From NCBI GenBank assembly GCA_937934305.1, contig CALHAG010000021.1:34564-58563 (forward strand): 24,000 nt of DNA, written 5' to 3'. Positions 1 to 24,000 of this stretch are shown here, piece by piece. The notes under the pieces are model-generated. The model did not search any database and had not been told where the DNA came from. It saw nothing but the letters and a program-made list of their open reading frames with translations. Source of the stretch: Candidatus Caldarchaeum subterraneum. Lineage in GTDB: Archaea; Thermoproteota; Nitrososphaeria_A; Caldarchaeales; Caldarchaeaceae. The position numbers were made by a program, and so were the translations under genes. How positions within the stretch are numbered: the stretch's first letter is position 1; the number at the start of each line of letters is the position of its first letter.

Positions 1-360
1 AGGCGCATCAAGCATCTCTCCACCCTTCTCCTCTACACGACGCGCCATCTCCCTCGAGAAACCTGGAGAAACAGTCGACATATCCACCACAACACATCCC
101 GGAGCCAATCCCTCCAAGACACCGCCCCGACCGAGCAAAACCTGTTCAACAGCCTTCTCATCGGGCAGCATGGTTATGACACATTCAGAAGATTCTGCCA
201 CTTCCTTCGACGAGCCACATGGAGTGGCTCCGAGAGAAGCGAGCTCCTCCATAGGTGCCTTGCTACGGTTAAACACAGCCATCTTAAACCCATGTCGCAG
301 AAGATTCTTCGCCATCGGCTTTCCCATGAGACCAAGCCCTATGAACCCAACCCGCTCCAT
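1..360 (-). CDS. NAD(P)-dependent beta-hydroxyacid dehydrogenase (3-hydroxyisobutyrate / tartronate-semialdehyde reductase family); N-terminal 120 aa only, gene runs off the left edge
   Basis: Not in the ORF track because there is no stop in the window. The reverse complement of 360..1 reads without stops: MERVGFIGLGLMGKPMAKNLLRHGFKMAVFNRS...ECVITMLPDEKAVEQVLLG...VVVDMSTVSP...GGEMLDAP. It has the GxGxMGxxMAxNL Rossmann motif plus the MLP and DAP(VSGG) motifs typical of this family. Confidence 0.8.
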   Translation of the reverse strand, partial: MERVGFIGLGLMGKPMAKNLLRHGFKMAVFNRSKAPMEELASLGATPCGSSKEVAESSECVITMLPDEKAVEQVLLGRGGVLEGLAPGCVVVDMSTVSPGFSREMARRVEEKGGEMLDAP

Positions 361-435
361 GACAATGAATCTTTAAAGGCTGTATGTAGGTTTTTTACTT
401 GGTGTTCCCCCGTTTTCCATGCGCTGAACAAAGTA

Positions 436-1131
436 ATGAAGCAGCGTTCACAGCATCTGTACCCCGTGCCCGTTAGGGTTGAGGATTTGGCGAGCCTCGT
501 AAGGCTGGCGTCTTCGCGATGGGACTACATACCTCATCTCATAGCCTTTCGACACGGCCAACAAACCATAATCGCATATCTTCAGACTATGCCTCTGGGA
601 AAAGTAAACATCCCCATGCTTTTCCACACCACAGCACCGGAGCCTGTGAAAAAATATGTCGTTTACACAGCTCTGGAAAAAGAGGAGACAAGACTATCCG
701 ACCAGCCCGAGACAGGCCGCTACATCTCCTATCCAATAATCCACGCAGACCCACCGCCCCACATCTTGGAGAAAGCAATAACCGGCAAACATGTAAGAAA
801 AATCCGCGGCATCGAGAAGATAAAAGTCAAGGCTCTCGACTCGATTATGCGCCTGGTTTCAGCGATGACTGACGAGTCGTTCAGCCCACCGGTGTGGTGC
901 TACAGGTCCCGAAACGGTTACAACCTCGCCGTCCTATACCCTGTATACGAATACTACGACTCAATAGCTCTCCCCTTCCTCTACTACGTCGAAGTGGAGG
1001 AGAAGCCGCCCGCGCCCTTCATCGCATACTCGCCCACCCTCGGCAGGGAGAGCATACGTTACACAAACTCCGTCTCCGATACACGCTACTCCTACGGTCG
1101 GCTGATATTTCTCGAAAAATTCATCGTTTAG
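436..1131 (+). CDS. Hypothetical protein (231 aa), no family recognised; apparent internal duplication
   Basis: Track ORF 292..1131. The first 48 codons overlap the conserved dehydrogenase N-terminus on the other strand, so the ATG at 436 (MKQRSQHLYPVP...) is the likelier start. AT-rich elements at about 370-399 lie upstream. The composition looks like ordinary coding sequence, unlike the R/P/S-rich alternative frames 519..872 and 894..1199. Confidence 0.55.
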   Translation: MKQRSQHLYPVPVRVEDLASLVRLASSRWDYIPHLIAFRHGQQTIIAYLQTMPLGKVNIPMLFHTTAPEPVKKYVVYTALEKEETRLSDQPETGRYISYPIIHADPPPHILEKAITGKHVRKIRGIEKIKVKALDSIMRLVSAMTDESFSPPVWCYRSRNGYNLAVLYPVYEYYDSIALPFLYYVEVEEKPPAPFIAYSPTLGRESIRYTNSVSDTRYSYGRLIFLEKFIV

Positions 1132-3269: not shown

Positions 3270-3459
3270 TGCGGAGGAGCGGGGATGGAGAGACGCGTTC
3301 ACACTCTTGGTAGCCGTTGCTCTCATTCTGTTTGCTCTTGATTTCTTGTTAGGGTTCCAGCTTACTTTTCAGTTCTTATTTTTTGCAGTGTATTTCCCGA
3401 TTTTCTTTTCAGGAGCCGTTTACCTGTTTAAGCGTTTGAGGAGATTGCGCAGGTATTAG
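3262..3459 (+). CDS. Small predicted membrane protein (65 aa, two hydrophobic segments, basic RLRRLRRY tail)
   Basis: The ATG overlaps the rpoK stop (AATGAGTGATG), suggesting coupling. There are two TM-length hydrophobic stretches. No family recognised. Confidence 0.5.
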   Translation: MSDAEERGWRDAFTLLVAVALILFALDFLLGFQLTFQFLFFAVYFPIFFSGAVYLFKRLRRLRRY

Positions 3460-3536: not shown

Positions 3537-4631
3537 ATGTTTCGCAGCGGGGTAAAAGACCTTAGGGGGTGGAGTGGAAGAGCAGCGCGTTTCCACTACA
3601 ACAGGTCACGCGAGATAATCAACGAAGTTGTCCACTCCTTCCTCAACATCTACGGCCCCGACGAGCTTGTCCAAGGCTTTGCGGAGCCCTTCTTCACAGA
3701 CTTCGTCATAACAGCGGCGGGATTGGATGAGACATCAGCGGACTCAACCCTTTACATGGGCTCCATGCTGAAGGAGGTTATCAGCCCACGTGACGGCGCC
3801 GCGGTTCTGGGCGGCAGGTTTGCGACGAGGTTCCGCATCCCGAATGAATTGCCAGAGGTGGCGAAGCTCTTCGGATTCTCCGAGACGATGGTTGAGCGGC
3901 TGCTTTACTGCAGCAGAATGGTTGCTAAAACAGATAGTGTGGCGCTGCAGGACGGCTTCGACCTATATTTTCACATGATGATTTTGTCAAGCAGCGGTGT
4001 CTGGACTGTTATACAGCAAAGCCTTAACCCCTACACCATGGCTGTCCGCCGCTACCACTGGTTTTCGGGCCGGGTGAAAAGCTTTGTTGACGAACCTCAC
4101 ACAGGCATAGTCTCTGACGAAATTAGGCAACGTGTTCTGGACATGACGGCAAAAGCCAGCAGCGAGTCGAGGCGCGCTTCTCTCGAGGTTCTTGAGAGGG
4201 ATGTGTCGAAGCTGCAGAGGCTTCACATGTTCGGCCGCCTCACAAACCAGACAACTCTTGATGACGAGGGGAAGAGCGTGGCCGATTTTCTCAGGCCGAT
4301 GGAGAGAATAAACTGGACACTCGTCTACAGGCTGGGGGAGCAGCAGCCCAAATCCTACGAGGAGCTGCTGGCCGTCAAGCAGGTTGGACGCGGAATCATT
4401 CGGCTGCTCGCCTTCGGAGTCTACATGATGTACGGCGTCAAACCCAGCCTACGCGACCCCGCATACCCACCCTCACAATACACAGCCAGATATGACGAAT
4501 CCTATTTCCTGTGGCGTCTGCAGCAGCTGGTTGATGCGATAAAGTCGTCGACGCTGGCGCCTGAGTTGAAGCGCTACTCTCTCCACAGGCTTGGCGAGGT
4601 TTTCGGCGAAGGTGAACCTGTCTCTGCCTAG
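3537..4631 (+). CDS. Conserved hypothetical protein, possibly a divergent DUF763 (COG1415)-like protein
   Basis: 364-aa ORF with clean coding character. The central block [17 protein letters not shown]...[20 protein letters not shown]...FVDEPHTGI resembles my recollection of the DUF763 core (AKVD..QDGY.LYHH...W.VVQQGM...ARRYHW..EPH). The family call is not verifiable here. Confidence 0.5.
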
Positions 4632-6294: not shown

Positions 6295-8268
6295 TTATTC
6301 TCCCTTAAACTCTGGCTTACGTTTGGCGAAGAAAGCCGATATCCCCTCCATGAAGTCTTTGGTGAATAATAGGTCGGCGAAAAACATTCTCTCCATGGCT
6401 AGCCCCTTGCTCAAGGGTGCTTCACGGGTCATGTAGATGAGCTGTTTGACGGCTCTCACCGCGAGCGGCGGCTGTGAAGCAAGCTTCTCAGCAAGGGTCT
6501 GAACCTCCTGCTCAAGGTTCTCCGGCTTGACAACCTTGTTCACCAAACCAATCCTGTACGCTTCTTCCGCTGATATGCGGTTTCCGAGCAACGTTAGCTC
6601 AAGGGCCCTGGCGACGCCTATCAGCCTCGGCAGCCTCTGTGTCCCACCAGCGCCAGGTATGAGTCCAAGGTTTATCTCGGGTTGGCCAAACTCAGACCTA
6701 TCAGTCGCTATTCTGATGTCGCATCCCATGATAAGCTCGCATCCTCCGCCGAGGGCGTAGCCGTCTATGGCCGCTATCACCGGCTTGGGCATAGACTCCA
6801 AGATGTTCATCAACTCTTGGAAAGCTCTTAGAAACTTTTCCGCATCCTGCCTCGTCTTGATTTCGGTGAAGGCTGTTACGTCGGCGCCGGCTGAAAAAGC
6901 TCTCTCACCAGCTCCCCGTAGAACCACGACCCGTGTCTCTCTATCGCTCCAAGCCTTCAGCAAAGCATCCGTCAACTCCTCTATCATTTTAGGAGTAATT
7001 GTGTTGAGTCGATGAGGCCGGTTTAGGATGATTTTTGTCACAGGGGGTTTTCTCTCCACCAATATCTCGGAGTAGCCTGTTTCAGCAGCTGCGTATGCAT
7101 AGAACCCGGCGCCAGTCTTGACGCCGAGTTTGCCTTGATTAACCAGCTCCATGATTAGGGGATCTGGCTTGTAGAAATCTCCATAGCGCTCCGCCGCTTT
7201 TGTCAACGCCGCGGCCACTTTGTCGAGGCCCAGCTCATCAGCATATTGGAAAACACCCTTAGGCCAGCCTAGGCCAAGCTTCACACCTGTTTCAACATCC
7301 TCAAGCGAAGCTACACCGTTGCGGACAATCCAAGCGGCCGAGTTTATCGCCGGAGCCATCAACTCCACCAAGTCAACCTTTTCACCAGCTTCACGCGGAA
7401 TGCTCGGCCTCTCATACGCCCCTCCCCGGTACTCGTAAAAGCCTTTACCGCTCTTCAGCCCATAGTTTCCTTTCTCATATAGTCTCTGGAACTGCGAACA
7501 TACGGGCGGCGTGTTGGGGTCTCTCTCCTTGATGGATTTGCTGGCTAAGACGATGACGTCTATTCCTGTGTAGTCGGCGAGCTCAAACGCTCCCATCGGT
7601 AGGCCGAGGCGATAGCGGAGGGCCGAGTCAATTTCCACAACGGAGTAGACACCTTCTTCAACGAGTTGGCAGCTGTGGTTGAGAAGAGGCGTCAGTATCC
7701 GGTTCACGATGAAACCCGGCACATCCTTCCTACATATGACGACTGTTTTCCCCATCTTTTTCCCTATCTCGACAGCCTTGTCCAAAGTCTCCTGAGAAGT
7801 TTTTTCACCTGCTATGACTTCGAGCAACGGCATGAGTGGCGGTGGGTTGAAGAAATGCATGCCCACTACTTTCTCAGGTCTGTTTGTGGCGGAGGCTATC
7901 TCAGTTATCGGTAATGTGCTGGTGTTTGTAGCGAGAATCGCGTGGGCGGGAGCGTTTTGGCTCAACAGTTGGAAGATGTTTTTCTTTATCTTGATGTCTT
8001 CAGGAGCTGCCTCGATAACCAAGTCGCTGTCGACAACCGCTTCAGCCAGATTGGTTGATGTCCTTATTCTGGCAATCGCCGCATCAGCAGCCTCCTTCGT
8101 AATTCTTTTCTTCTCCACAAACTTCTCCAAGCTCCACCTTATCTTCTCCAGCCCCTTCGCCAAAAACTCCTCCGCAACATCCACCATCACAACATCAAAA
8201 CCAGCTAAAGCAGCCACCTCTGCGATACCGTGACCCATAACACCCGCTCCAACAACAACTACCTTCAA
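6295..8268 (-). CDS. Bifunctional 3-hydroxyacyl(butyryl)-CoA dehydrogenase / enoyl(crotonyl)-CoA hydratase (dehydrogenase N-terminal, hydratase C-terminal)
   Basis: 657 aa, TTG start. The N-terminus has KVVVVGAGVMGHGIA (Rossmann), ATNTSTL and GMHFFNPPPLMPLLEV, plus two 3HCDH C-terminal repeats (GLKSGKGFYEY, GVKTGAGFYAY). The C-terminus has the crotonase fold AFSAGADV...GGGCELIMGCDIRIA...FGQPEINLGLIPGAGGTQRLPRLIG. Confidence 0.9.
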   Translation of the reverse strand: MKVVVVGAGVMGHGIAEVAALAGFDVVMVDVAEEFLAKGLEKIRWSLEKFVEKKRITKEAADAAIARIRTSTNLAEAVVDSDLVIEAAPEDIKIKKNIFQLLSQNAPAHAILATNTSTLPITEIASATNRPEKVVGMHFFNPPPLMPLLEVIAGEKTSQETLDKAVEIGKKMGKTVVICRKDVPGFIVNRILTPLLNHSCQLVEEGVYSVVEIDSALRYRLGLPMGAFELADYTGIDVIVLASKSIKERDPNTPPVCSQFQRLYEKGNYGLKSGKGFYEYRGGAYERPSIPREAGEKVDLVELMAPAINSAAWIVRNGVASLEDVETGVKLGLGWPKGVFQYADELGLDKVAAALTKAAERYGDFYKPDPLIMELVNQGKLGVKTGAGFYAYAAAETGYSEILVERKPPVTKIILNRPHRLNTITPKMIEELTDALLKAWSDRETRVVVLRGAGERAFSAGADVTAFTEIKTRQDAEKFLRAFQELMNILESMPKPVIAAIDGYALGGGCELIMGCDIRIATDRSEFGQPEINLGLIPGAGGTQRLPRLIGVARALELTLLGNRISAEEAYRIGLVNKVVKPENLEQEVQTLAEKLASQPPLAVRAVKQLIYMTREAPLSKGLAMERMFFADLLFTKDFMEGISAFFAKRKPEFKGE

Positions 8269-9579: not shown

Positions 9580-11406
9580 TCACGGGCTGTATTTGGGCCG
9601 CTTTGAAAGCTCTAGCGGCAGCGTAAGAGGCCTGAAAGGATAGTCCTTGGTCTCTTTCTGAATCAGTTTGACAAGCGGCTGAAGACGCATCTGCTTGACT
9701 TCTTTCCTTCCTCTGATGCGTAGAGCCAGTGTTCCCTTCTTGGCCTCTTTCGGCCCAAGTGTTGCGACATATGGTATCCAGCTTGTCTCCGCCTCGTAAA
9801 CTTTCTTGGCGAGTGTCTCGGGTCTGTCGTCTACGTCCACACGAATGCCGTATTGTGTGATTTTTTCGGCAAGCTGGACGGCGCGTTTGTTGTATTTCTC
9901 GTTGAGCGGCAATATGCGAAGCTGGGTTGGGCAAAGCCAGGTTGGCAGGGTTGGGGGAGTCTTGCCCAGAGCTGTGTCAACGACCGCGTATAGGTATCTT
10001 TCCACGGTGCCTATCAAAGCCGAATGCAGAATAACTGGATACTTCTTTTCTCCGTCCTTGTCTACGTAGGTGATGCCGAATCTCTCAGCGTTTCCCACAT
10101 CTATCTGCACCGTGCCTATTTCACGTGGTCGTCCAAACTTGTCTATGATGTGGTACTCAATGTTCAGCACCCAGTAGTAGGAGCTGTTTTCTGGGTAGAA
10201 GGACAGTAGGACAGGTTTCCTCTCTCTTTTGAGCAGTTTTTGGAAGAAGCCTCGGTTTTCTTCAAAGAACTTTCTCGAGGTAAGGTTATACAGAGAGTAG
10301 TAGTCGCGGCCGAGTTTTTCGATTTCCCTGTAAATCTTGTCATGTATTTTCTCGACCATCTGGAGGGCTTCTGGGATGTCGCGGCAGAAGACGTGTAGGT
10401 CGGGCATAGACATTTTCCGAAGCCTGAACCCGAGGACAAGCTCTCCCCTTTGCTCCAGCCTGTAGCTGTCAGCGACCTCAAACATTCCAAACGGTAGACT
10501 CCTGTAGCTGATTACCCAGTTTCGCGCCAAAGCAAACTGCTGAAAACATGCCGCGTAACGCATCACATAGGGCCTGCCGTCCACCTCAACCCTGTACATC
10601 CTTTGGCCGAAGAGGCTGGCGTGTTCACGAATGGGTCTGCTCTCGAGGCTGAAGAGGTTCGTGCCTTTGACAAAATAGACTGGGAACCCGAGCTCTCTCA
10701 CGATTTTCGACGCATAGTCTGATATCAGGTCGTAAACGATTGTTCCCTCGGGGCCGTAGTGCATGTGGCCGCTGTCTGATAGCTCCTCCCAGTCGATACC
10801 CAGCCTCTTCAAAACCTTGCCGTGCTCAGGCTCCGACACCTCGTTTAAGCCTTTGCCGAGAGCCTCCTTCTCGACAAGCACAGCTAAGCCATTGGGTAAA
10901 TCGGCCAATGCTTCTTCGGGTTTGAGAAGCTCGCCATCGGGTGTCAAAACCATGTAGCTCTTCTCCACCGAGGTGGTCTGCTTCTGCTGTAGGGTGGCTT
11001 GGCTGAAGACCCTTGAACGCTCCGCGAGTGGATGGCCCTTAATGGATAAGGCGAGGGCTTTGTTCCAGCCGAAAGGAGACCGGTGGACCTCGACACCACG
11101 TTCCTTTGCTATTTTCTCCATCAGAGCAAGAATCTCCACAGCGTGCTCAGGCCTCGCCAACTCGCGGGAGAGATGAGCAAAGGGATAGATAACAAGCCTC
11201 GGAATCTTAAGACGCGTCATAAACTCCACCGCATCAGCCACAGCGGCCTCGGCAACACGTTCATCATCCTCGGGCTCGACAGAGGTCAGCAACACATAAG
11301 CATCCTCAATCCTCACAGGCTCAGGCGAAGCCTCCTCCACAACCGTCGACTCCTTCTTCACGGGACGATACTCGACAAAATCCACATGCAGACCCAGAAT
11401 CCTCAA
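9580..11406 (-). CDS. thrS: Threonyl-tRNA synthetase, archaeal type with N-terminal DTD-like editing domain
   Basis: 608 aa, TTG start. The N-terminus MRILGLHVDFVEYRPV...VIYPFAHLS.ELA...PFGWNKALALSIKGHPLAE is the archaeal ThrRS editing domain. It is followed by the class II core (RYAACFQQF, FEVADSYRLEQRGEL, MSMPDLHVF, HSALIGTVER) and an anticodon-binding domain. Confidence 0.95.
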   Translation of the reverse strand: MRILGLHVDFVEYRPVKKESTVVEEASPEPVRIEDAYVLLTSVEPEDDERVAEAAVADAVEFMTRLKIPRLVIYPFAHLSRELARPEHAVEILALMEKIAKERGVEVHRSPFGWNKALALSIKGHPLAERSRVFSQATLQQKQTTSVEKSYMVLTPDGELLKPEEALADLPNGLAVLVEKEALGKGLNEVSEPEHGKVLKRLGIDWEELSDSGHMHYGPEGTIVYDLISDYASKIVRELGFPVYFVKGTNLFSLESRPIREHASLFGQRMYRVEVDGRPYVMRYAACFQQFALARNWVISYRSLPFGMFEVADSYRLEQRGELVLGFRLRKMSMPDLHVFCRDIPEALQMVEKIHDKIYREIEKLGRDYYSLYNLTSRKFFEENRGFFQKLLKRERKPVLLSFYPENSSYYWVLNIEYHIIDKFGRPREIGTVQIDVGNAERFGITYVDKDGEKKYPVILHSALIGTVERYLYAVVDTALGKTPPTLPTWLCPTQLRILPLNEKYNKRAVQLAEKITQYGIRVDVDDRPETLAKKVYEAETSWIPYVATLGPKEAKKGTLALRIRGRKEVKQMRLQPLVKLIQKETKDYPFRPLTLPLELSKRPKYSP

Positions 11407-11432
11407 GCCCAGCTAGACTCGCGAACTCACCG

Positions 11433-11440
11433 TATTTAAA
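11433..11440 (-). promoter_or_regulatory. TATA-box-like element upstream of thrS
   Basis: TATTTAAA (TTTAAATA on the minus strand), centred about 31 nt upstream of the thrS TTG at 11406, in the 108-nt divergent spacer. Confidence 0.35.
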
Positions 11441-11514
11441 CCAGCCTGCCAACGGAACATGTATTTCCGCGAGACATAACAACACTTAAGAGCCTCCGCC
11501 CAGCCTATGGTGTT

Positions 11515-11997
11515 ATGGGTAAGCAGGGTAAAGCGGTAGTGAAGGCCCCTATCGATGAGGTCGTATCCGACCTTCTCAAAGCCTATGCCGATGAGTGGCT
11601 TGCACATTACCAGTACTGGGTAGCCGCGGTGAGTTTGAAGGGCGTCGACGCCGACACGTTCAGGCCGGTTTTGATGAAGATGTCCCAGCACGAGCTCAAA
11701 CACGCCGAGAAACTGGCTAAGAGAATAATCCAGCTGGGGGGAAAACCTGTCCTCCATTTTGAAAAACTATTGGCCACAAGCGGATGCGGCTACATTCCTC
11801 CACCCGAAGACCCAACCAACTACGAGCAGTTGATAAAGGACATTTTGAAGGCGGAAGCATGCGCCATCAAATTCTACAGCGAAATGGTTGAGAAATATCG
11901 TGTGACCGATGTTGTAACCCATGAGCTTTTCGAGGAGCTTCTCGAGGACGAGGTTGAGGATGAGCAGATTTGGGAAGATTTTCTCGCCAAGCTCTAA
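11515..11997 (+). CDS. Dps-like (DPSL) ferritin-superfamily protein
   Basis: 160-aa four-helix-bundle pattern with di-iron ligand-like motifs (DEWLAHY, QHELKHAEKL, KAEACAIKFY, EDEVEDE). It has the two cysteines (SGCGYIPPPED and EACAI) that I recall as characteristic of archaeal DPSL proteins such as Sulfolobus SsDPSL. Confidence 0.75.
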   Translation: MGKQGKAVVKAPIDEVVSDLLKAYADEWLAHYQYWVAAVSLKGVDADTFRPVLMKMSQHELKHAEKLAKRIIQLGGKPVLHFEKLLATSGCGYIPPPEDPTNYEQLIKDILKAEACAIKFYSEMVEKYRVTDVVTHELFEELLEDEVEDEQIWEDFLAKL

Positions 11998-12041: not shown

Positions 12042-13280
12042 TTGAAGGTTGCGCTTGTGCAGAGGCTTGACGACTGGGCAGAATACAACTTGGATGAGCT
12101 GGAGGAGTTGTGCAGGTCCGCGGGCTACACGCCCGTCTATAAGCTGGTTCAAAGGAGACCTCCGCACAGCAAATACATGATTGGCCCCGGTAAGGTTGAG
12201 GAGCTGCGGCGCGCTGTCAAGTCTCTCAAAATTGAGAAAATTGTTACGGAAAATGAGCTGAAGCCTGTCCAGGAGTACAACCTCGCCAAAGCCCTCTCGA
12301 TACCTGTGATTACGAGGACGCAGCTCATCCTCGAAACCTTCGCACGCCGAGCCGCCTCAACCGAGGCGAAGCTCCAGATCAAGCTGGCTGAGCTTCAGTA
12401 CGAGTTGTCGAGGGCTAAGGAGAAGGTGCGACTCGCGAAGAAGGGTGAGCAGCCGGGTTTCCACGGACTGGGAGCATATGAGGCCGATGTCTACTACAAC
12501 GAGGTTTTCAGACGAATATCAACCATCAAGCAGAAGCTTAAGCAGATTAGGATGAGGAAGAACCTTGTGAGGCAGAGGAGGTTGGAGGGAGGGCTTCCAA
12601 CCGTGGCGTTAACGGGTTACACAAACGCTGGCAAAACAACGCTGTTCAACAGGTTTTCCGGGGAAGAGCATCCAGCGGGCCCCCAGCTCTTCACCACATT
12701 ATCGACAACCGCGCGGATAGTGAAGTTCAGAGGAAGAAAAGCCTACTTAAGCGACACAGTAGGTTTCATCAAAAACCTGCCACACCTACTGGTTGAATCC
12801 TTCCACTCCACGCTAAGCGAGTTCATCTACGCCGACCTCCTGCTACTCGTCGTGGACATCAGCGAGGAAAAGTCCGTGGTCGAGTCAAAGCTAAACACCT
12901 GTTTAAACGTGCTCGACGAAGTGGGTGTGAAGAACGTGCCTATACTGGTTGTGTTCAACAAGATAGACGCCGCGAGCGATTACCAAGAAAAAATTGAGAG
13001 CATAAACCCCGAGTTTCGCTACGTCGCCGTGTCCGCTTGGACTGGGCAGGGGCTTGACACACTGGAGGAATCTGTGGCGGACATGATGGGAGGCTACATA
13101 CGTGTAAGAGCCCAGCTGGAGAATGGGCAAACAACACCATCACTGCTCAACGAGATTAAACAGTTCTGCAACATTTTGAAGATTGAGTACAACAGCTCCG
13201 GCTATGAAATCGAGTGCGAAACACCTCTTCAGCTTGCCGAGAAGATTAAGAGGCTGGCGGCTGAGTTTCATGTCGTTTGA
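12042..13280 (+). CDS. hflX: GTPase HflX
   Basis: 412 aa, TTG start. The HflX N-terminal domain has GPGKVEEL and the coiled LQYELSR. G motifs are GYTNAGKTTLFN (G1), FTTL (G2), DTVGFI..LP..LVESFHSTL (G3) and FNKID (G4). Confidence 0.92.
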   Translation: MKVALVQRLDDWAEYNLDELEELCRSAGYTPVYKLVQRRPPHSKYMIGPGKVEELRRAVKSLKIEKIVTENELKPVQEYNLAKALSIPVITRTQLILETFARRAASTEAKLQIKLAELQYELSRAKEKVRLAKKGEQPGFHGLGAYEADVYYNEVFRRISTIKQKLKQIRMRKNLVRQRRLEGGLPTVALTGYTNAGKTTLFNRFSGEEHPAGPQLFTTLSTTARIVKFRGRKAYLSDTVGFIKNLPHLLVESFHSTLSEFIYADLLLLVVDISEEKSVVESKLNTCLNVLDEVGVKNVPILVVFNKIDAASDYQEKIESINPEFRYVAVSAWTGQGLDTLEESVADMMGGYIRVRAQLENGQTTPSLLNEIKQFCNILKIEYNSSGYEIECETPLQLAEKIKRLAAEFHVV

Positions 13281-13734
13281 AGAGTTTCTGTTGCGTCAGG
13301 TTAGGCAGCTGGCGTTTTTCCAGTTTGGTGTAGCTGGTGAGCTGTTTTTCCCCGATGGATGCGTAGTGGAGGTTTCGCCTTCAACAGGTAGGCCTCGGCG
13401 AATCTGGCTAGACGGCAAATGCATAGCAACCATAAGGGCCATGGATGGGTGGCTGACGCTAACAGTTTCCGGCGCTCAGCGGTTGAATGCACTTCTCGAG
13501 AAGGGCGGGAACAGGGTTGTGGTCGGCCGCGAAGGCGCTGAAAAAGTGGCCGCGGGCTACGACGTCTCAGCTGAACACGTGGTCGAAGCCGATGCATCAA
13601 TTGTGCCGGGCATGGAGGTGCTTGTGGTTGACGAGGATAATCGGCTTATCGGGGTTGGCAAAGCTGTGGTCGCGGGAGTTGAGATGGCTGAGCTTCGCCG
13701 TGGAGCGGTTGTGAAGGTTAGGCATAAGGTTTAA
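13270..13734 (+). CDS. PUA-domain RNA-binding protein resembling the C-terminal C2+PUA module of archaeosine tRNA-guanine transglycosylase
   Basis: Track ORF 13183..13734. The upstream 29 codons lie inside hflX, so ATG 13270 (MSFEEFLLRQVRQLAFFQFG) is preferred. It overlaps the hflX stop by 11 nt. LRQVR..A.FQFG.GAGE.LFP...IATIRAMDGWLTLTVSGAQRL then VVEADASIVPGMEVLVVDEDNRLIGVGKAVV.G.EM...RGAVVKVRH is a typical PUA. Confidence 0.65.
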   Translation: MSFEEFLLRQVRQLAFFQFGVAGELFFPDGCVVEVSPSTGRPRRIWLDGKCIATIRAMDGWLTLTVSGAQRLNALLEKGGNRVVVGREGAEKVAAGYDVSAEHVVEADASIVPGMEVLVVDEDNRLIGVGKAVVAGVEMAELRRGAVVKVRHKV

Positions 13735-13761
13735 ACCTGGTTCAGCGGGGGATATGCTGCT

Positions 13762-14130
13762 TTGAAAAGGCTCAGTCCCCGTGAGATGAGACGTGCACAG
13801 GAGAGAATGTTGAAAAGCCTCGGCCTCAACGTGGAGGAAATGGGACAGGCCGAGGAGGTTGTAATCAAGCTGGGTGAGCGTGTGATTACGCTGAAGGGGC
13901 CGCTGGTCTACGCCGTGAAAACAGGCGGCGAGAAAATTTTTCAGATAATAGGCGGGGAGGAGGTGGCGGCGCAGGCTGAGGAGACGAAGCCCGTTTACGA
14001 GCCGACGGAGGAAGATGTTTCGCTGGTGATGGCTCAGACAGGCGTGTCAGAGGAGGAGGCGAAGAAAGCGCTTCTCGACTCGGGAGGAGACCTAGCCAAA
14101 GCCATTCTACTACTCCGCTCAAGAAGATAA
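13762..14130 (+). CDS. nac: Nascent polypeptide-associated complex protein (archaeal NAC; NAC + UBA domains)
   Basis: 122 aa, TTG start. NAC domain: MLKSLGLNVEEMGQAEEVVIKLGERVITLKGPLVYAVKTGGEKIFQIIG. C-terminal UBA: EEDVSLVMAQTGVSEEEAKKALLDSGGDLAKAILLL. Confidence 0.9.
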   Translation: MKRLSPREMRRAQERMLKSLGLNVEEMGQAEEVVIKLGERVITLKGPLVYAVKTGGEKIFQIIGGEEVAAQAEETKPVYEPTEEDVSLVMAQTGVSEEEAKKALLDSGGDLAKAILLLRSRR

Positions 14131-15726
14131 GACGACAAGCGGACGCAGGTCCAGCAAATCCTCAGCCATTTTAAAATCCATTTTTGCGACCAGCCCACCT
14201 GTGAAAAACCGAGCCAGCTCACGGACTTCACGTGACGAAGACGAGGCAACGTCAAAGGAATATGGCGCATCGCCGGTTATCCGCTCAACCTCACGCACAC
14301 CAAGAGACAATTCGTCAAGCCTCTTCATCCTTTCAGCCGCTCTCCTACTTGCCCTGCTTCCCAGAAGAACCACAACATCCTCGTCCACGCCGCTACATTC
14401 CTGAGCAACCTTCTTCACCAGCTCAACCCTGCCAAAGCCCTGCTTGGCAACAAGCTGCTCAACACCCACAGGAGACAAAACGCATGAACCCTCTTCCCCG
14501 GGCCAGAAACGTTGAAGAAACCGTTTTTTAGCGGAGAATGCGGCGGCAACAATTTCTACAGTCTCCCGCAAAATGTCCCAGAATTTTCTCTCAGAACCCC
14601 CGCACTTGAGGAAGAGATTCACCATGTTGATGGAGGCCTTTGCGGAGATAATCCCCGCCTCGCCAAATGGATGCCCCTCCGAGGAAACTACTCCGTGAGC
14701 CAAAACAAGCAAAACATCACCGGCCAACCTTGCGACGCTTTTGTCAAAAGGCAGAGTAGCGCTAATTCGCGCCTCAGCCAACCGGTTATACATGTTCCCC
14801 CGCGGCTCAGAGTAGAAAACAGATAGCCTTCTCCCAAACACCTGAACAGAGTCAAACAAAAGCATCAACATGTTTTCATCTATGTCAGGGTCCCGCAAAA
14901 CAACCTCAGCCTCAACACCACCAACCTCGCAGAGAACAGTTCTCAACATATCCGGCGTGTATAGACGCGAATAGACACTAAACCCCCACGTTTCCAAGCC
15001 CTCGAAATCAACCGCGCCAACCAAGTAAAGTCGAGCGGCCTCACTCGGCAGAATTTTGTGAAAAACATATTCCCTGAAAACCGCTCCAGAGGCCGTGGTC
15101 ATCAAAGACATAAAATTTCTCTGACGATGGTTCTCGCTAAGCAGCTTATCCACATCAGCAATAGGCATCCCCAGCCTAGCCAGCTTATTCCTATGCTCCA
15201 TCAACCCATGCTCGACAAGTAACGCGTTGACCATCTCACGTATCAGGGGAGCGGAGAGCTCACCAAGCTTAAGCTCCTCAAGTTTTTCTTCAAACAATTT
15301 AACAATCTTATCCGCGGTTTTCGGAGGCATAGAAGCCTCCTCAACAAGGACTCTCGTAATCTTGTTTCTGTCAAAATCTTCGAGAACCATGTCCGACCTC
15401 CTAACCTTTATCCTCTGCGAGATGCTTGACCTTATCTCGCTCAGGATTTTCAGAACCTGCACACCCTTCGTAGTCAACTCATAATTTTTGGTCTGACGGT
15501 TGAGTGTTATCAAGCCCGCTGCATAGAGCATCTTTAGATGATGTGCAAACTTTCCAGCGTCGCTTTTCTTATTCATTCCAAGGACATGCATCAACTCCGT
15601 GTAATTCAGCGGGCTTTTCTCCAGCTTTCTGAGGATGCTAAGCCTGTTAGGTGAAGCCAGTGATTTGAAGATTTTAGCGTCATCGATTGCTTCGCTCATC
15701 TCGGAGACAGAAGAATCTGTCTGCAC
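14119..15726 (-). CDS. ArsR-type wHTH + ATP-cone + degenerate class III ribonucleotide reductase (NrdD)-like domain protein; putative nucleotide-responsive regulator
   Basis: 535 aa from GTG 15726 (alternative ATG at 15699). Residues 15-95: IFKSLASPNRLSILRKL...NYTELMHVLGM...GKFAHHLKMLYAAGLI is an ArsR/HTH_20 pattern. Residues 106-186: IKVRRSDMVLEDFDRNKITRVLVEEA...ADKIVKLFEEKLEEL...LSAPLIREMVNALLVEHGL...LARLG is an ATP-cone pattern. Residues 195 onward: NFMSLMTTASGAVFREYVFHKILPSEAARLYLVGAVDFEGLE and IISAKASINMVNLF resemble NrdD blocks, but there is no CxxC zinc site and no C-terminal glycyl-radical motif. Confidence 0.7.
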   Translation of the reverse strand: MQTDSSVSEMSEAIDDAKIFKSLASPNRLSILRKLEKSPLNYTELMHVLGMNKKSDAGKFAHHLKMLYAAGLITLNRQTKNYELTTKGVQVLKILSEIRSSISQRIKVRRSDMVLEDFDRNKITRVLVEEASMPPKTADKIVKLFEEKLEELKLGELSAPLIREMVNALLVEHGLMEHRNKLARLGMPIADVDKLLSENHRQRNFMSLMTTASGAVFREYVFHKILPSEAARLYLVGAVDFEGLETWGFSVYSRLYTPDMLRTVLCEVGGVEAEVVLRDPDIDENMLMLLFDSVQVFGRRLSVFYSEPRGNMYNRLAEARISATLPFDKSVARLAGDVLLVLAHGVVSSEGHPFGEAGIISAKASINMVNLFLKCGGSERKFWDILRETVEIVAAAFSAKKRFLQRFWPGEEGSCVLSPVGVEQLVAKQGFGRVELVKKVAQECSGVDEDVVVLLGSRASRRAAERMKRLDELSLGVREVERITGDAPYSFDVASSSSREVRELARFFTGGLVAKMDFKMAEDLLDLRPLVVLSS

Positions 15727-15750
15727 CTGCTTATTGCCTTATCGTTTCAA

Positions 15751-15759
15751 GTTAAAATC
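15751..15759. promoter_or_regulatory. Single AT-rich TATA-like element in the divergent spacer between the wHTH/ATP-cone gene and argF
   Basis: GTTAAAATC is the only strongly AT-rich element in the 54-nt spacer. It lies about 25-30 nt from both GTG 15726 (-) and GTG 15781 (+). Confidence 0.3.
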
Positions 15760-15780: not shown

Positions 15781-16716
15781 GTGGTGAAGATGCGGCATTT
15801 TCTTGAGGTCGGCGACCTGAAGCCTAAAGAAATAGACGTGATAGTTTCTGCTGCGCTGCGTTGGCGGAAGCGTGGATACCCTAGGACAAGACCTCTACGG
15901 GACAAAACGGTTGTTCTCGTGTTCCAGAAGCCTTCTACTAGGACGCGTGTATCTTTTCAGGCTGCGGTGGCTAAGCTGGGCGGTGAGTCGATGTATCTAG
16001 GCTGGGGCGAGCTTCAGCTGGGCCGCGGCGAGTCTGTTGAGGACACTGGCAAGGTTCTGGCGAGATACGTTGACTGCATAGTGGCGCGTGTATTCGGCCA
16101 CGGCGACTTGGTGGAGCTGGCTAAAAACGGCCGCATACCCGTAATTAACGCGCTCAGCGACAAACATCATCCATGTCAGGCTTTGGCCGACCTCATGACC
16201 ATCTACATGTATTCGAAGAAACCGTATCAGTCGAAAGTGGCTTTCATCGGCGACGGAAACAACGTATGCGTCTCGCTTATGCAGGTTTGTGCGGCCGCGG
16301 GCGTAGACATAGCCGTTGCTACTCCACCATCATACAGGCCGCCCGAGGAGGAGGTGAAGAAAGCCCTCAAAGTTGCTGAAGAGACGGGGGCCAGCGTCAT
16401 TTTGACAGATGACCCGAGAGAAGCCGTCAGAGACGCCGACTTTGTCTACACAGATGTCTTCGTCTCGATGGGTCAGGAGGCGGAGCGGAACAGGAAACTA
16501 GCAGAATTCCTGCCAACCTATCAGGTCAACGCCTCTTTGATGTCGCATGCAAAACCAACCGCCAAGTTCATGCACTGCATGCCCATGCACCTCGGCGAAG
16601 AAGTCACACCCGAGGTAGCCTATGGCCCCCAATCCGTGATATATGACCAAGCCGAGAACAGGATGCACACCGAGGCATCGCTTCTCGCCTACCTGCTCCG
16701 AGGCAGGGTTAAATAG
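15781..16716 (+). CDS. argF: Ornithine carbamoyltransferase
   Basis: 311 aa: FQKPSTRTRVSF (carbamoyl-phosphate site), SDKHHPCQALADL, DVFVSMGQE and FMHCMPMH (HCLP-type ornithine site). The HPCQ and SMG motifs favour OTC over ATCase. The start is GTG 15781 or ATG 15790. Confidence 0.92.
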   Translation: MVKMRHFLEVGDLKPKEIDVIVSAALRWRKRGYPRTRPLRDKTVVLVFQKPSTRTRVSFQAAVAKLGGESMYLGWGELQLGRGESVEDTGKVLARYVDCIVARVFGHGDLVELAKNGRIPVINALSDKHHPCQALADLMTIYMYSKKPYQSKVAFIGDGNNVCVSLMQVCAAAGVDIAVATPPSYRPPEEEVKKALKVAEETGASVILTDDPREAVRDADFVYTDVFVSMGQEAERNRKLAEFLPTYQVNASLMSHAKPTAKFMHCMPMHLGEEVTPEVAYGPQSVIYDQAENRMHTEASLLAYLLRGRVK

Positions 16717-16909: not shown

Positions 16910-16964
16910 CGCAGGTTTTTATTACCGGCGAAGCCTTAGAGTGGACAGGTTGAGCACGGCTGGG

Positions 16965-17849
16965 ATGAAGTATTTCGCGGTTAAGACAACGGTTGGGCAG
17001 GAGAGGACGGTGGCCAACGTTCTCGAGGCAAGGTTCCACGGCATTTTCCTCGACTTTGTCGGAGAATCGGTGGGAACAGTAGCGATAAGCGACAAAACTC
17101 ATGTGGCTGTGATTTTCGTTTCCCCGAAAACAACCATGTTGGAGAAGGTGGCGGTGTACATATCCAAGGCTGGCGAGCCAACCGAGCCCCTCCGCTCCAT
17201 GTTAGTCGAGTACAGTGATGAAACAGGGTTCGGTTCAGAGCCCCTTGGCGAGGGAAGCTACGACCCTCTACTTCTCAAAACAGACGGTTGGGCTGAGATA
17301 GTTTTCCGCTCACCTGTTAAACTGAGGCGCGGCACATCCTATGCTCTGAAGATTTTCAAAACAGTCGAGGAGGCGGGCGGCTATAACTTGTTTCTAGGAG
17401 AAGGTGAGAAAGAGGATGTACGGTTCAAGGTTTTTGAGCAGGGGGAGTGGAGAGATGATGCCCGGCTGCCTCTCTTCAAGCTGATTGAGAAGCCTGCGAT
17501 TGCGTCAATATTCATTCTTCCAGCCTTAAAGGGCTACGTGTTTGTTGAGGCGACTTCGAAAGAGGTTATCGCCGACGCGCTGCAGAATGTTAGGCATGTG
17601 AAGGCGAGGCCGCCGATGCCTGTGAAGCTGGAGACCATCGCATCGCACTTGGTTGAGAAACCTTTGATTGAGGTTTTGGCGGCTGGGCAGATGGTTGAGA
17701 TTGTCTCCGGCCCATTGAAAGGCATCGTCGGCAAAGTCATCAGGGTTGAGAAGTCGAGGCGCGAGGTCACGCTTGAGCTGAAAGAGGCGGCTTTCCAGCT
17801 CCCAATATCCGTCTCAATAGACGCCGTCCGCCCCATAGACAAGACGTAG
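16965..17849 (+). CDS. spt5: Transcription elongation factor Spt5 (NusG) with a ~150-aa insertion inside the NGN domain
   Basis: NGN start: MKYFAVKTTVGQERTVANVLEAR. NGN remainder: IASIFILPALKGYVFVEATSKEVIADALQNVRHVKA. KOW: GQMVEIVSGPLKGIVGKVIRVEKSRREVTLEL. Synteny is secE-spt5-L11. The ATG at 16965 is preferred over the track's GTG 16941, and TTTTTATTA at 16916-16924 is a possible TATA. Confidence 0.85.
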   Translation: MKYFAVKTTVGQERTVANVLEARFHGIFLDFVGESVGTVAISDKTHVAVIFVSPKTTMLEKVAVYISKAGEPTEPLRSMLVEYSDETGFGSEPLGEGSYDPLLLKTDGWAEIVFRSPVKLRRGTSYALKIFKTVEEAGGYNLFLGEGEKEDVRFKVFEQGEWRDDARLPLFKLIEKPAIASIFILPALKGYVFVEATSKEVIADALQNVRHVKARPPMPVKLETIASHLVEKPLIEVLAAGQMVEIVSGPLKGIVGKVIRVEKSRREVTLELKEAAFQLPISVSIDAVRPIDKT

Positions 17850-22696: not shown

Positions 22697-24000
22697 CTAA
22701 GACGCCTGCTCAATGGAGAAATCCCTGGTGGAATAGGTGACCAGAGCCAAAGCGAACAACACATATCCCATTACCAGATAGGGGAGAAACGCGGGCGGAT
22801 TAGTCGCAATCGGCTCGAAAAGACGCGACACTAGCAGCGGGAGACTAAGCAGCTGCGAACCAAGAAGTGGGAGAACAACTATGAAAATCGAAGTGAAAGA
22901 GAAGGGAGAGGAAAAACGCTTTATCGAAGAAGATATCACGAGTGCGAGAAATGAGCCGAAAACCGCTGAACATAGAAACAGCAACACATCCAAGTACGTT
23001 AAAGCGAATAACCCCCCGAAGACCTGAACAGCTGCCACCATTAAAGATGAAAAAATTAAAGAAACAATTGTGTAGGCTATCAGTAATGTGTAAAAATAGG
23101 ATGAGACACGGTAAACAGAGAGCTGAACTAGCCACAGGTTATGTTTCTCCGTAAGAAGCCAGTTAAATGAAAGGAGAGCCGGTATCATCGGAGTGTACAG
23201 TGAGACTATAGTGAGGAAAATCGCCTCAGGCTGTGCTGTGAACGCAAGCGCTCTTGGAAGAGCAGTGCCAACGTAGACAAGTAAAAGCAGGACAAAAGCT
23301 GTTATCCAAAGACTGCCGTCTCGCAGGAACCTCGTCAAATGAGCTTTAACAAGCAAAGCAGTTGGCCTATCAGCGGCGTTTATTAGCAAAAATCTCGCCA
23401 CAGGCTGTGGAAGTTTAAAAGATGTGATCAATTTTCGCGGCGGGTCTGTGAAAACGTTGGTTAGTATCGGCGCCAAACCAGCGTATTCAACCTTTCTGGA
23501 GAGGAAAAGATTCACTGCAAGCAGCCCGCCTATTAGCAGAAACGCCGCAGAGGTTTTGAGGCCGCCCCCCGTCACACCGAGTAACAGATTTGTGGGATAT
23601 GGAAAGCTGCTAACCCATGGAAGTGATGCAAAAACATCCAAAAGCGGCAGTAATACTAGCATCAGCATCACCCCGCCCACAGCCATCACACCTCTCTTTC
23701 CCAACCAATTACGTAACAGGCCAAGCATGTGAGATATCAAAATGGACGAGACAACAGCCGCTTCAACAATCATTACAAAGTTAAACAAATGGATGAGATG
23801 ACGCGGGTAAGTGAGCACCGTTACAATAAGCAACATCGACGGCAGGGTGAATACGTTGAGGAAAATAAATTGAAACAAAAAATCGGACCAGAGATAGGTT
23901 CTCGGCCGCACATTCGAGGTGAAAATGTAGTCTATCTCATAGCCCAAGGCCGTTACACCCCCCTTCAAACCGAGAAACACACCCACAGCCAAGACACCAG
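22697..24000 (-). CDS. Polytopic integral membrane protein (more than 10 predicted TM segments), family not recognised; probably 5'-partial
   Basis: Track ORF 22697..23992 begins at a TTG. The same frame stays open and hydrophobic to the window edge (…GVLAVGVFLGL), so the true start probably lies beyond 24000. Hydrophobic segments recur throughout, as in an ABC-2-like permease or other transporter-like protein. Confidence 0.6.
   Translation of the reverse strand, partial: GVLAVGVFLGLKGGVTALGYEIDYIFTSNVRPRTYLWSDFLFQFIFLNVFTLPSMLLIVTVLTYPRHLIHLFNFVMIVEAAVVSSILISHMLGLLRNWLGKRGVMAVGGVMLMLVLLPLLDVFASLPWVSSFPYPTNLLLGVTGGGLKTSAAFLLIGGLLAVNLFLSRKVEYAGLAPILTNVFTDPPRKLITSFKLPQPVARFLLINAADRPTALLVKAHLTRFLRDGSLWITAFVLLLLVYVGTALPRALAFTAQPEAIFLTIVSLYTPMIPALLSFNWLLTEKHNLWLVQLSVYRVSSYFYTLLIAYTIVSLIFSSLMVAAVQVFGGLFALTYLDVLLFLCSAVFGSFLALVISSSIKRFSSPFSFTSIFIVVLPLLGSQLLSLPLLVSRLFEPIATNPPAFLPYLVMGYVLFALALVTYSTRDFSIEQAS

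Follow-up and report, generated by a model that had tools for sequence, protein, structure and literature searches.

The 24,000-nt stretch of Candidatus Caldarchaeum subterraneum DNA analysed here (assembly GCA_937934305.1, contig CALHAG010000021.1, positions 34,564–58,563; hereafter the window) carries on its minus strand, at 14119–15726, an open reading frame (ORF) of 535 amino acids (aa) when read from a GTG, whose product joins a winged helix-turn-helix (wHTH), an ATP-cone and a remnant of the class III (anaerobic) ribonucleotide reductase (RNR) NrdD. On balance, we take this protein to belong to a family of nucleotide-sensing transcription regulators that is tied to RNR and built from a dead NrdD. 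The original prediction, made from the sequence alone, had named it a candidate nucleotide-sensing transcription factor; our computational analyses support that proposal, and the wHTH, the cone, the NrdD homology and the catalytic loss were all upheld. The ORF coordinates, the length of 535 aa and the quoted peptides are all present as predicted. The start needed correction: it is probably the ATG at 15699–15697 (M10), giving a product of 526 aa, because orthologs of 526 aa begin with MSEAIDD, which corresponds to M10, and because residues 1–13 are disordered in the AlphaFold2 model (predicted local distance difference test (pLDDT) <50). Residue numbers below count from the GTG.

Reading from its N-terminus, the product comprises a wHTH of the ArsR/DUF7347 type (15427–15675, minus strand like all parts of the gene; residues 18–100), an ATP-cone (15157–15411; residues 106–190) that stands directly behind this DNA-binding domain after a linker of five residues modelled at low confidence, an N-terminal helical block of NrdD (14977–15129; residues 200–250, ...EYVFHKILPSEAARLYLVGAVDFEGLETW) and a reduced α/β-barrel remnant of NrdD (14122–14976; residues 251–535), recognised by fold and by hhalign. 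Within the barrel lie a shortened equivalent of the finger loop (14647–14691; residues 346–360, SSEGHPF) and the best-conserved barrel block (14281–14640; residues 363–482), which runs from KASINMVNL, the NLPR strand, through AAER..LD...G. Identity to other Caldarchaeum orthologs is 63% in the cone, 58% in the wHTH, 46% in the N-terminal NrdD helices and 36% in the barrel, which is also the least conserved part family-wide (16% identity).

The N-terminal wHTH of the predicted ArsR/HTH_20 type was recovered by three Pfam models above their cut-offs, namely DUF7347 (33.6 vs 27.6 bits, residues 18–93), HTH_5 (31.3 vs 22 bits) and HTH_20 (28.1 vs 27 bits). It is modelled with a pLDDT of 86–92 and matches NolR by Foldseek (target template modelling (TM) score 0.73) and NmtR by sequence (E 2e-4). 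Its recognition helix carries the conserved motif GKFAHHLxxL, in which G58, F60, H63 and L67 are invariant among 26 diverse members of the family. Fold and recognition-helix signature are those of the ArsR/SmtB regulators (NmtR, NolR, SmtB, CzrA), but classic members of that group have about 100 aa and sense metals or redox state through Cys/His, whereas the Caldarchaeum protein adds 430 aa of cone and dead enzyme and scores 40.3 bits with the ArsR/SmtB model of NCBIfam (NF033788), below the cut-off of 55. The wHTH contains no Cys, the first of the protein being residue 266, which speaks against a metal-sensing ArsR repressor with a site of the α3N type.

The predicted ATP-cone is present: Pfam PF03477 matches residues 106–174 with 31.3 bits (cut-off 25.8; relatives 22–43 bits), and Foldseek places the domain on NrdR (9a6n). 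The modelled cone has strands at residues 107–109 and 115–117 and helices at 120–130, 135–152, 159–172 and 176–182; its sequence comprises a β-hairpin (KVRRSD...EDFDRNKI) and helices ending in the family motif E-Y-R-H-K-L-x-R, the Caldarchaeum version of which is MEHRNKLAR, with His178 for Tyr. Of all the family's domains, the cone is conserved best. Among 162 members, V108 (92%), R109 (96%), S111 (91%), E116 (94%), F118 (99%), R163 (99%), R179 (91%) and R184 (97%) are kept, as are K/R122, I123, N167, L170, G186 and P188 (91–100%); the column of R110 holds R/K in 26% and Thr in 67% of members. The E-Y-R-H motif is common to the family cone and E. coli NrdD. In the NrdD of P. copri, triphosphates are held by Lys7 and Arg8 of the hairpin together with Arg87 and Arg91 of the last helix, and Tyr83 stacks on the base (PMC11226230). 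The family also has basic residues in hairpin and last helix, a match to P. copri that is one of motif, not of residue-level structure. Tyr178, which is 80% conserved, aligns with the Tyr of EYRH in E. coli NrdD and may match the stacking Tyr83.

For the rest of the protein, sequence models alone give a hint: the Pfam NRDD model (PF13597) stays sub-threshold (20.5 vs 26.2 bits, residues 364–407, the IISAKASINMVNL block), and the NCBIfam NrdD equivalog TIGR02487 reaches 16.4 bits against a cut-off of 326. Structure and profile comparisons point to NrdD. The AlphaFold2 model, built from 26 homologs (pLDDT 84, predicted TM score (pTM) 0.70), has class III RNRs as all of its best 29 Foldseek matches in the PDB (E 7.6e-12 to ~2e-5, probability 1.00), including those of S. 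thermophilus (the best), P. copri, T. maritima and phage T4, with NrdR for the cone and NolR for the wHTH lower in the list; the extra domains, together with the trimming of the barrel, which has ~11 predicted strands and has lost many loops, keep the TM scores to class III RNRs down at ~0.4. In hhalign, a profile of the Caldarchaeum C-terminal bodies alone (residues 251–535) matches positions 402–551 of a profile of genuine NrdDs, from the NLPR strand to the R..LD..YG block (93.4% probability, E 2.5e-7), and BLASTP aligns residues 95–247 with a genuine bathyarchaeal NrdD (E 2e-20). The resemblance of about 340 aa to NrdD, proposed from sequence, is thus borne out by the Foldseek fold, the hhalign profile and the graded series of homologs described below. 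Its two component claims stand as well. In paired alignments with genuine NrdDs, residues 200–250 are homologous to the E-Y..L.LP...A.AH..G.IH.HDLE block, with E219 and P227 invariant, and the likeness of IISAKASINMVNL to the G.VTINLPR block is matched by the NRDD hit at 364–407 and the invariant Asn367. Among the 26 diverse members E274, N367, R466, D471, G476, Y489, G510 and G511 are invariant; N367, R466, D471, Y489 and G510–G511 belong to substrate-pocket motifs of NrdD, and a nucleotide pocket in the barrel is conceivable from these residues.

The chemistry of the enzyme has been lost. The Caldarchaeum protein has four Cys (266, 375, 415 and 444), no CxxC and no RxxG[YF], and it stops ~62–75 residues before its full-length relatives and E. 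coli NrdD, so that it is without Zn-ribbon and glycyl-radical domain; further segments are deleted from its body relative to a 771-aa member and E. coli NrdD. What is left of the finger loop is a shortened version (SSEGHPF, residues 348–354); its His352 aligns with the Cys that carries the thiyl radical (Cys384 in E. coli), at a place where the alignment is uncertain and the paired alignment gaps the loop. VDFEGLE stands at the H-x-H-D-L-E/D motif of genuine NrdDs in the paired alignment. The alignment thus agrees with the claims that the HIHDLD-type motif is degenerate and that, with neither a CxxC zinc site nor a C-terminal glycyl-radical motif, RNR activity seems excluded. One further expectation, that the pseudo-RNR body would keep the binding of effector deoxynucleoside triphosphates (dNTPs) known from NrdD, is doubtful for the Caldarchaeum protein, from which the segment for the hairpin of the dNTP specificity site (s-site; P. 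copri 185–192, ~E. coli 184–197) is deleted.

We surveyed the same residues in an alignment of the 162 members with E. coli NrdD. The Cys384 column holds Cys in three members (commonest are L in 34, I in 30, H in 19, V in 14 and Y in 12), the second active-site Cys (E. coli Cys175), absent from the Caldarchaeum protein, is found in none of the 162, and eight have any RxxG[YF] in the tail. No member has all three radical residues together, while the double-CxxC Zn-ribbon is kept in 92 of 162. As judged by these alignments, the whole family is catalytically dead as an RNR. Genuine bathyarchaeal NrdDs encoded next door have RP-FC, a QCC finger loop, the Zn-ribbon and SR[VI]TGYY...WNxGK, and the dead paralogs in the same loci are without one or more of these motifs. 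Family members of ammonia oxidisers (P0315, P0021, P0026 and relatives; Nitrososphaerales) are named 'anaerobic ribonucleoside-triphosphate reductase (formate)' by NCBI and JGI; on the alignment evidence this name is a misannotation, because the thiyl Cys, the second Cys and the radical Gly are all missing. Other database names are 'HTH domain-containing protein' and 'ArsR family transcriptional regulator'. A tblastn search with E. coli NrdG, a weak probe for archaea, gave no match in the window or in any locus.

Searched exhaustively with HMMER, 1.84 billion cluster representatives yielded 736 matches at E<=1e-3 and 313 at E<=1e-10, and relatives occur in at least 587 genomes (scan with one genome per species). 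Their hosts are Caldarchaeum, Terraquivivens, Wolframiiraptor, Geocrenenecus, Nitrososphaerales/Thaumarchaeota and Bathyarchaeia. Caldarchaeum orthologs found by a word-indexed search have 525–537 aa; longer relatives of 624, 659–699 and 718–771 aa have the same wHTH and cone and progressively stronger NRDD matches. The NRDD scores form a graded series, from 486–532 bits in genuine NrdDs through 283 and 226 bits in Bathyarchaeia-type dead members, 141 and 113 bits in ammonia oxidisers and 50 bits in the 624-aa form to 20–25 bits in Caldarchaeum. Full-length dead members share 34% identity over ~650 aa with a genuine bathyarchaeal NrdD (E 1e-110). In a distance tree (Poisson correction, rooted on E. 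coli NrdD, 200 bootstraps), the dead family and the genuine bathyarchaeal NrdDs are each monophyletic (200/200), and next to the Nitrososphaerales forms the short forms of the Caldarchaeum/Aigarchaeota type branch as a derived clade (200/200). These comparisons show the family to be large and monophyletic, with the Caldarchaeum protein as its most reduced member. The simplest reading of the tree is that an ancestral archaeal NrdD with an N-terminal ATP-cone was duplicated once, gained an ArsR-type wHTH once and lost its radical chemistry, and that its descendants were trimmed lineage by lineage. Neither an archaeal protein that combines wHTH, ATP-cone and NrdD-like body nor a transcription factor derived from RNR is described in the full-text literature searched, outside of which lie most subscription journals, and the RNR phylogeny papers examined make no mention of the family.

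The link to RNR comes from the gene neighbourhoods of the relatives. In 26 of 90 loci surveyed a genuine RNR gene lies directly downstream on the same strand, 16 of them Bathyarchaeia-type loci with glutaredoxin and nrdD and ten with a class II RNR (nine Nitrososphaerales-type); pyrB/pyrI are directly downstream in ~15 further loci. The order in ammonia oxidisers is thyA, thioredoxin, family gene, class II RNR (ATP-cone, lgN and lgC domains) and pyrB/pyrI, and close homologs of this RNR are annotated as adenosylcobalamin-dependent. In Bathyarchaeia, the family gene is followed by a small glutaredoxin-family ORF (~100 aa, with a CxxC, PF00462 31.2 bits), a genuine nrdD and pyrB/pyrI. The glutaredoxin ORF fills the gap between dead paralog and nrdD (L040, 10197–10722; L047, 10194–10758, Bathyarchaeum tardum CP122380; L091, 10284–10723), and the nrdD genes of the 16 Bathyarchaeia-type loci encode an intact QCC finger loop, Zn-ribbon and SR[VI]TGYY. 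The family gene thus stands beside whichever RNR class the lineage uses, as expected of a regulator and not of a subunit, and its position immediately upstream of genuine RNR genes strengthens the predicted link to RNR regulation.

Candidate cis-elements are shared between these genes. In ammonia oxidisers, an unbiased k-mer test of the regions upstream of the family gene and RNR ranked GTCAA/TTGAC first among non-A/T words (32 occurrences, 5.9-fold enriched, p ~6e-15, eight of eight loci), with densities per kb of 6.3 upstream of the family gene and 12.6 upstream of RNR, compared with 1.1 in other intergenic DNA and 1.75 in coding DNA. Upstream of the family gene the word forms GTCAA-N6-TTGAC palindromes, and a conserved GTCTCATTGACTC box lies upstream of the ammonia-oxidiser RNR. 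The bathyarchaeal grx-nrdD promoter has three conserved blocks between variable flanks, TGTYAATTT, TTATACAGAATTTTATAC and the CTAAAAAATTAAATA block, which resembles a TFB recognition element (BRE) and TATA box; the conserved blocks stand upstream of the TATA box, and TTATAC abuts the TATA box of the bathyarchaeal family gene's own promoter. A protein-binding box is the better reading of the candidate sites upstream of RNR in ammonia oxidisers, because an RNA element or riboswitch, which we also considered, has no Rfam match and a long-range stem in only two of four ammonia-oxidiser loci. The class II RNR has two further symmetrical sites in its upstream region. One is a 21-nt palindrome without mismatch, ATACCGTATATTATACGGTAT (L010, 8223–8243); the other is an inverted pair, GAGTCAATGAGAC / GTCTCATTGACTC, whose two halves change together from locus to locus, with TCAAT in L075 and TTAAT in L010. 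Palindrome or inverted-pair sites outside L010 lie at 3422–3434 and 3480–3492 in L075 and at 3707–3722 in L081.

In the window itself, the family gene is monocistronic and converges on a NAC gene (13762–14130), with a 3' overlap of 12 nt at 14119–14130; the same tail-to-tail overlap is present in orthologous loci. Divergent from it, with ~55–90 bp between the starts, is argF for ornithine carbamoyltransferase (15781–16716, plus strand; NF001986 387 bits, cut-off 306; TIGR00658 379 bits), a conserved divergent partner in Caldarchaeales and Terraquivivens that is possibly co-regulated with the family gene. The other neighbours are housekeeping genes (Spt5, L11, L1, L10, alanyl-tRNA synthetase, PUA, HflX, Dps and threonyl-tRNA synthetase (ThrRS)), and this arrangement recurs around Caldarchaeum orthologs with as little as 43% identity. 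In two bathyarchaeal loci (L065 and L074), NAC and PUA genes follow pyrB/pyrI, which suggests an ancestral order of family gene, RNR, pyrBI, NAC and PUA from which the RNR-pyrBI segment was lost in Caldarchaeales, because in Caldarchaeales NAC and PUA directly follow the family gene (13183–14130 in the window, where HflX comes after them).

The divergent region of roughly 90 bp toward argF holds a conserved promoter-proximal element between a TATA-like box and the start codon of the family gene, CGATAAGGCAATAAGCAG (15727–15744, minus strand; consensus CGATAAG[G/C]CAATA[A/T][G/T]CA, also cited as CGATAAGSCAATAWKCAG / CGATAAGSCAATA). It occurs once per locus and in the same place in the Caldarchaeum-type loci examined, with orthologs down to 43% identity, and in a degenerate version beside a 35% identical ortholog (L017). 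Either an operator that overlaps the transcription start or the core promoter itself (TATA/BRE) could account for this element. A reading of CGATAAGSCAATAWKCAG as a proven operator was not sustained, given its single copy in the window and a TATA-like equivalent in other short-form lineages. A metagenome-wide scan for CGATAAGSCAATAWKCAG returned almost only chance matches, with one real Caldarchaeum locus among the 80 kept, none of which adjoined RNR. The palindromic A/T box TTAAAAT at 15752–15758, 23–29 nt upstream of the argF GTG and conserved in position among orthologs, is a putative TATA-like box. As an operator, the palindrome AGACAGA-N4-TCTGTCT (15705–15722, just upstream of the ATG) was rejected, being unconserved even in a 90% identical ortholog.

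The closest functional parallel is bacterial NrdR, which is thought to read the balance of ATP and dATP and to control RNR transcription, is often autoregulated and is often encoded next to RNR genes (PMC9110341). The original prediction was right that NrdR regulates RNR genes in bacteria; its statement that no archaeal counterpart is established should read that NrdR is rare in archaea (PMC9110341). NrdR and the family have in common a DNA-binding domain joined to an ATP-cone and a gene that often lies beside RNR genes. They differ in that NrdR binds DNA with a Zn-ribbon (RRRR motif), whereas the Caldarchaeum protein has a Cys-free ArsR-type wHTH, that a whole dead NrdD body follows the cone, which comes from NrdD and not from NrdR, and that the candidate operators (GTCAA palindromes and others) do not resemble NrdR boxes. 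The proteins are not members of the NrdR family; if the mechanism proposed below holds, they would be its functional analogue made of different parts, a known regulatory logic in what appears to be a new construction. Genuine NrdD, in its archaeal glutaredoxin/NrdH-linked form, shares with the family the ATP-cone and the α/β-barrel, including NLPR, R..LD..YG, YYTNS and GG, but the family is without the thiyl Cys, second Cys and radical Gly, the Caldarchaeum protein is also without the Zn-ribbon and C-terminal domain, and the family has an extra N-terminal wHTH and is found in organisms that are obligately aerobic and rely on a B12-dependent RNR.

Reuse of dead enzymes has precedents. Herpesvirus M45/vIRA, for which the literature uses the term 'inactive ribonucleotide reductase' homolog, is likewise an RNR subunit without catalysis that was put to another use; it differs in its class I R1 origin, its viral setting and its role in necroptosis mediated by the RIP homotypic interaction motif (RHIM), and it has neither a DNA-binding domain nor a link to nucleotide sensing. 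Similar in general design are the MocR/GabR regulators, in which a winged helix is joined to a barely or non-catalytic aminotransferase fold that serves as a dimerising, ligand-sensing module. These differ from the family in their ligands (pyridoxal phosphate and γ-aminobutyrate), in an unrelated enzyme fold, in being bacterial and in having no ATP-cone.

For dimerisation, nucleotide binding, DNA binding and the direction of regulation, homology and architecture suggest the following mechanism. The dead NrdD-like body, an obligate dimer in real NrdD, would hold two chains together, and the ATP-cones would bind ATP or dATP and so read the dATP/ATP ratio. In the NrdD of S. thermophilus, ATP and dATP shift the cones to markedly different positions and dATP dimerises them (PMC12662201); as in such genuine class III RNRs, the two nucleotides would put the family's cones in different arrangements. 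Movement of the cones would shift the attached winged helices, whose spacing or availability would then set DNA binding by the dATP/ATP ratio. In the relatives, the proteins would act on the RNR operon next to their gene, which is grx-nrdD in Bathyarchaeia and a class II RNR in ammonia oxidisers, and probably also on their own promoter. The Caldarchaeum form, having lost the s-site hairpin, Zn-ribbon and C-terminal domain, would work with the wHTH, cone and barrel core that it has kept, and the sole candidate targets in view in Caldarchaeum are its own promoter and the divergent promoter of argF. The fullest form of this proposal, which we hold tentatively and as somewhat short of an even call, is that in Bathyarchaeia and in Nitrososphaeria, among them the globally abundant ammonia oxidisers, the missing dNTP-pool/RNR regulator is an undescribed ancient family, the ATP/dATP-driven movement of the cone, by which genuine class III RNRs are switched on and off, being reused to move a DNA-binding domain, so that the allosteric machinery of an enzyme would have become a sensor controlling its own paralog or the class II replacement.

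Several observations weigh against an RNR regulator. With the contig extended by 10 kb on each side, no RNR, thyA or pyr gene lies within 10 kb of the Caldarchaeum gene, and its RNR link comes from its relatives for this reason; the RNR of Caldarchaeum itself was not located, and a deep-branching class II query returned only Nitrososphaerales proteins. Tyr178, the putative base-stacking residue, is His in the Caldarchaeum protein. The GTCAA boxes and the bathyarchaeal blocks are no more than candidate sites for the family protein, many of the bathyarchaeal loci are closely related, which makes their promoter conservation partly one of shared ancestry, and the element at 15727–15744 may be a core promoter, as the position equivalent to it in other short-form lineages looks like a TATA box. 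The tree was made with a simple distance method, and its sample of genuine archaeal NrdDs was limited to eight, each encoded by a neighbouring gene. Part of this evidence would also fit a transcription factor with a working cone that in Caldarchaeales has moved off RNR to control argF and its own gene, so that carbamoyl-phosphate use (arginine vs pyrimidines) or growth-related genes would follow the adenylate/dATP pool. The divergent pair with its shared promoter of 55–90 bp is kept across Caldarchaeum and Terraquivivens in orthologs down to 33% identity, the family gene is elsewhere linked to pyrB/pyrI, which have the same carbamoyl-phosphate substrate, and the Caldarchaeum genome has no RNR nearby. 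We nevertheless regard this alternative as unlikely: Wolframiiraptor-type short-form lineages have no argF at this position, the synteny may be a remnant of a housekeeping order (Spt5-L11-L1-L10 / NAC-PUA-HflX), and regulators often target unlinked genes, so that a missing nearby RNR says little.

The remaining alternatives fit less of the evidence. Ammonia oxidisers have a class II RNR and no NrdD partner, few parts of the protein are as conserved as the ArsR-type recognition helix, conserved palindromic boxes are common to the family's own and the RNR promoters, and Caldarchaeum retains the protein without an adjacent RNR; these points make it improbable that the family regulates or scaffolds nucleotide synthesis at the protein level by binding RNR, its activase or a redoxin, with the wHTH used for protein contacts. 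Such a role would draw on the dimerisation of NrdD through what is the family's well-conserved region 200–250, by which heterodimers with the genuine bathyarchaeal NrdD are conceivable, and on the use of winged helices, in some proteins, for protein–protein contacts. A new non-radical catalytic or ligand-processing activity of the barrel, regulated or localised by wHTH and cone, appears decidedly improbable. E274, N367, R466, D471, Y489, G510 and G511, invariant in the 26 members even where the barrel is reduced, could mark a preserved pocket, but they belong to ordinary NrdD motifs (NLPR, R..LD..YG, YYTNS and GG) that equally fit a role in fold or nucleotide binding, and the low conservation of the barrel (36% in Caldarchaeum, 16% in the family) and its progressive trimming are atypical of a selected active site. 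That the Caldarchaeum protein is a decaying, non-functional relic of the full-length family is the least credible of these explanations. It is the shortest form and its NRDD score is below threshold, yet all sampled Caldarchaeum genomes carry an uninterrupted ORF (42–98% identity), synteny is conserved, cone and wHTH retain 63% and 58% identity, the model is confident (pLDDT 84) and the tree groups the short forms in a stable clade (200/200).

Faithful replication depends centrally on a controlled supply of dNTPs, and no general regulator of archaeal RNR genes is described in the literature searched. If the proposed role as a nucleotide-sensing RNR regulator is right, the family would fill this gap in two large and ecologically important archaeal groups, and the candidate operators (GTCAA-N6-TTGAC and the bathyarchaeal grx-nrdD blocks) and ligands (ATP and dATP) make the question directly testable. 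As a series of pseudoenzymes, from dead NrdDs of ~770 aa with a Zn-ribbon to a core of 526–535 aa, the family documents the stepwise stripping of a radical enzyme to sensor and scaffold. The label 'anaerobic ribonucleoside-triphosphate reductase' in aerobic ammonia oxidisers could mislead metabolic reconstructions and needs correction.

Some other features of the window deserve mention. The Spt5 homolog (16941–17849, plus strand) has 302 aa, about twice the usual archaeal size. Its NGN domain starts with YFAVKTTVGQE at residues ~10–30, the NCBIfam Spt5 model covers only residues 187–301, and ~150 extra residues lie inside or after the first NGN element, a feature conserved in orthologs of 294–299 aa. 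On the contig with the 98% identical ortholog of the family protein (L092), a PIN/MazE-like toxin-antitoxin pair lies at 14719–15313 between the Dps-like gene and ThrRS; the equivalent place in the window (~11400–11520) has only ~100 bp, which indicates an insertion/deletion polymorphism between close strains. Pfam gives no match at E<=1e-5 for two sizeable ORFs, 292–1131 (plus strand, 279 aa) and 22697–23992 (minus strand, 431 aa), and a protein of 474–495 aa, also without a Pfam match, takes the position of the latter on the orthologous contig. Adjoining SufS and a PadR regulator, the minus-strand gene at 6295–8268 encodes a 657-aa fusion of 3-hydroxyacyl-CoA dehydrogenase and enoyl-CoA hydratase; such a fusion enzyme serves the thaumarchaeal hydroxypropionate/hydroxybutyrate cycle.

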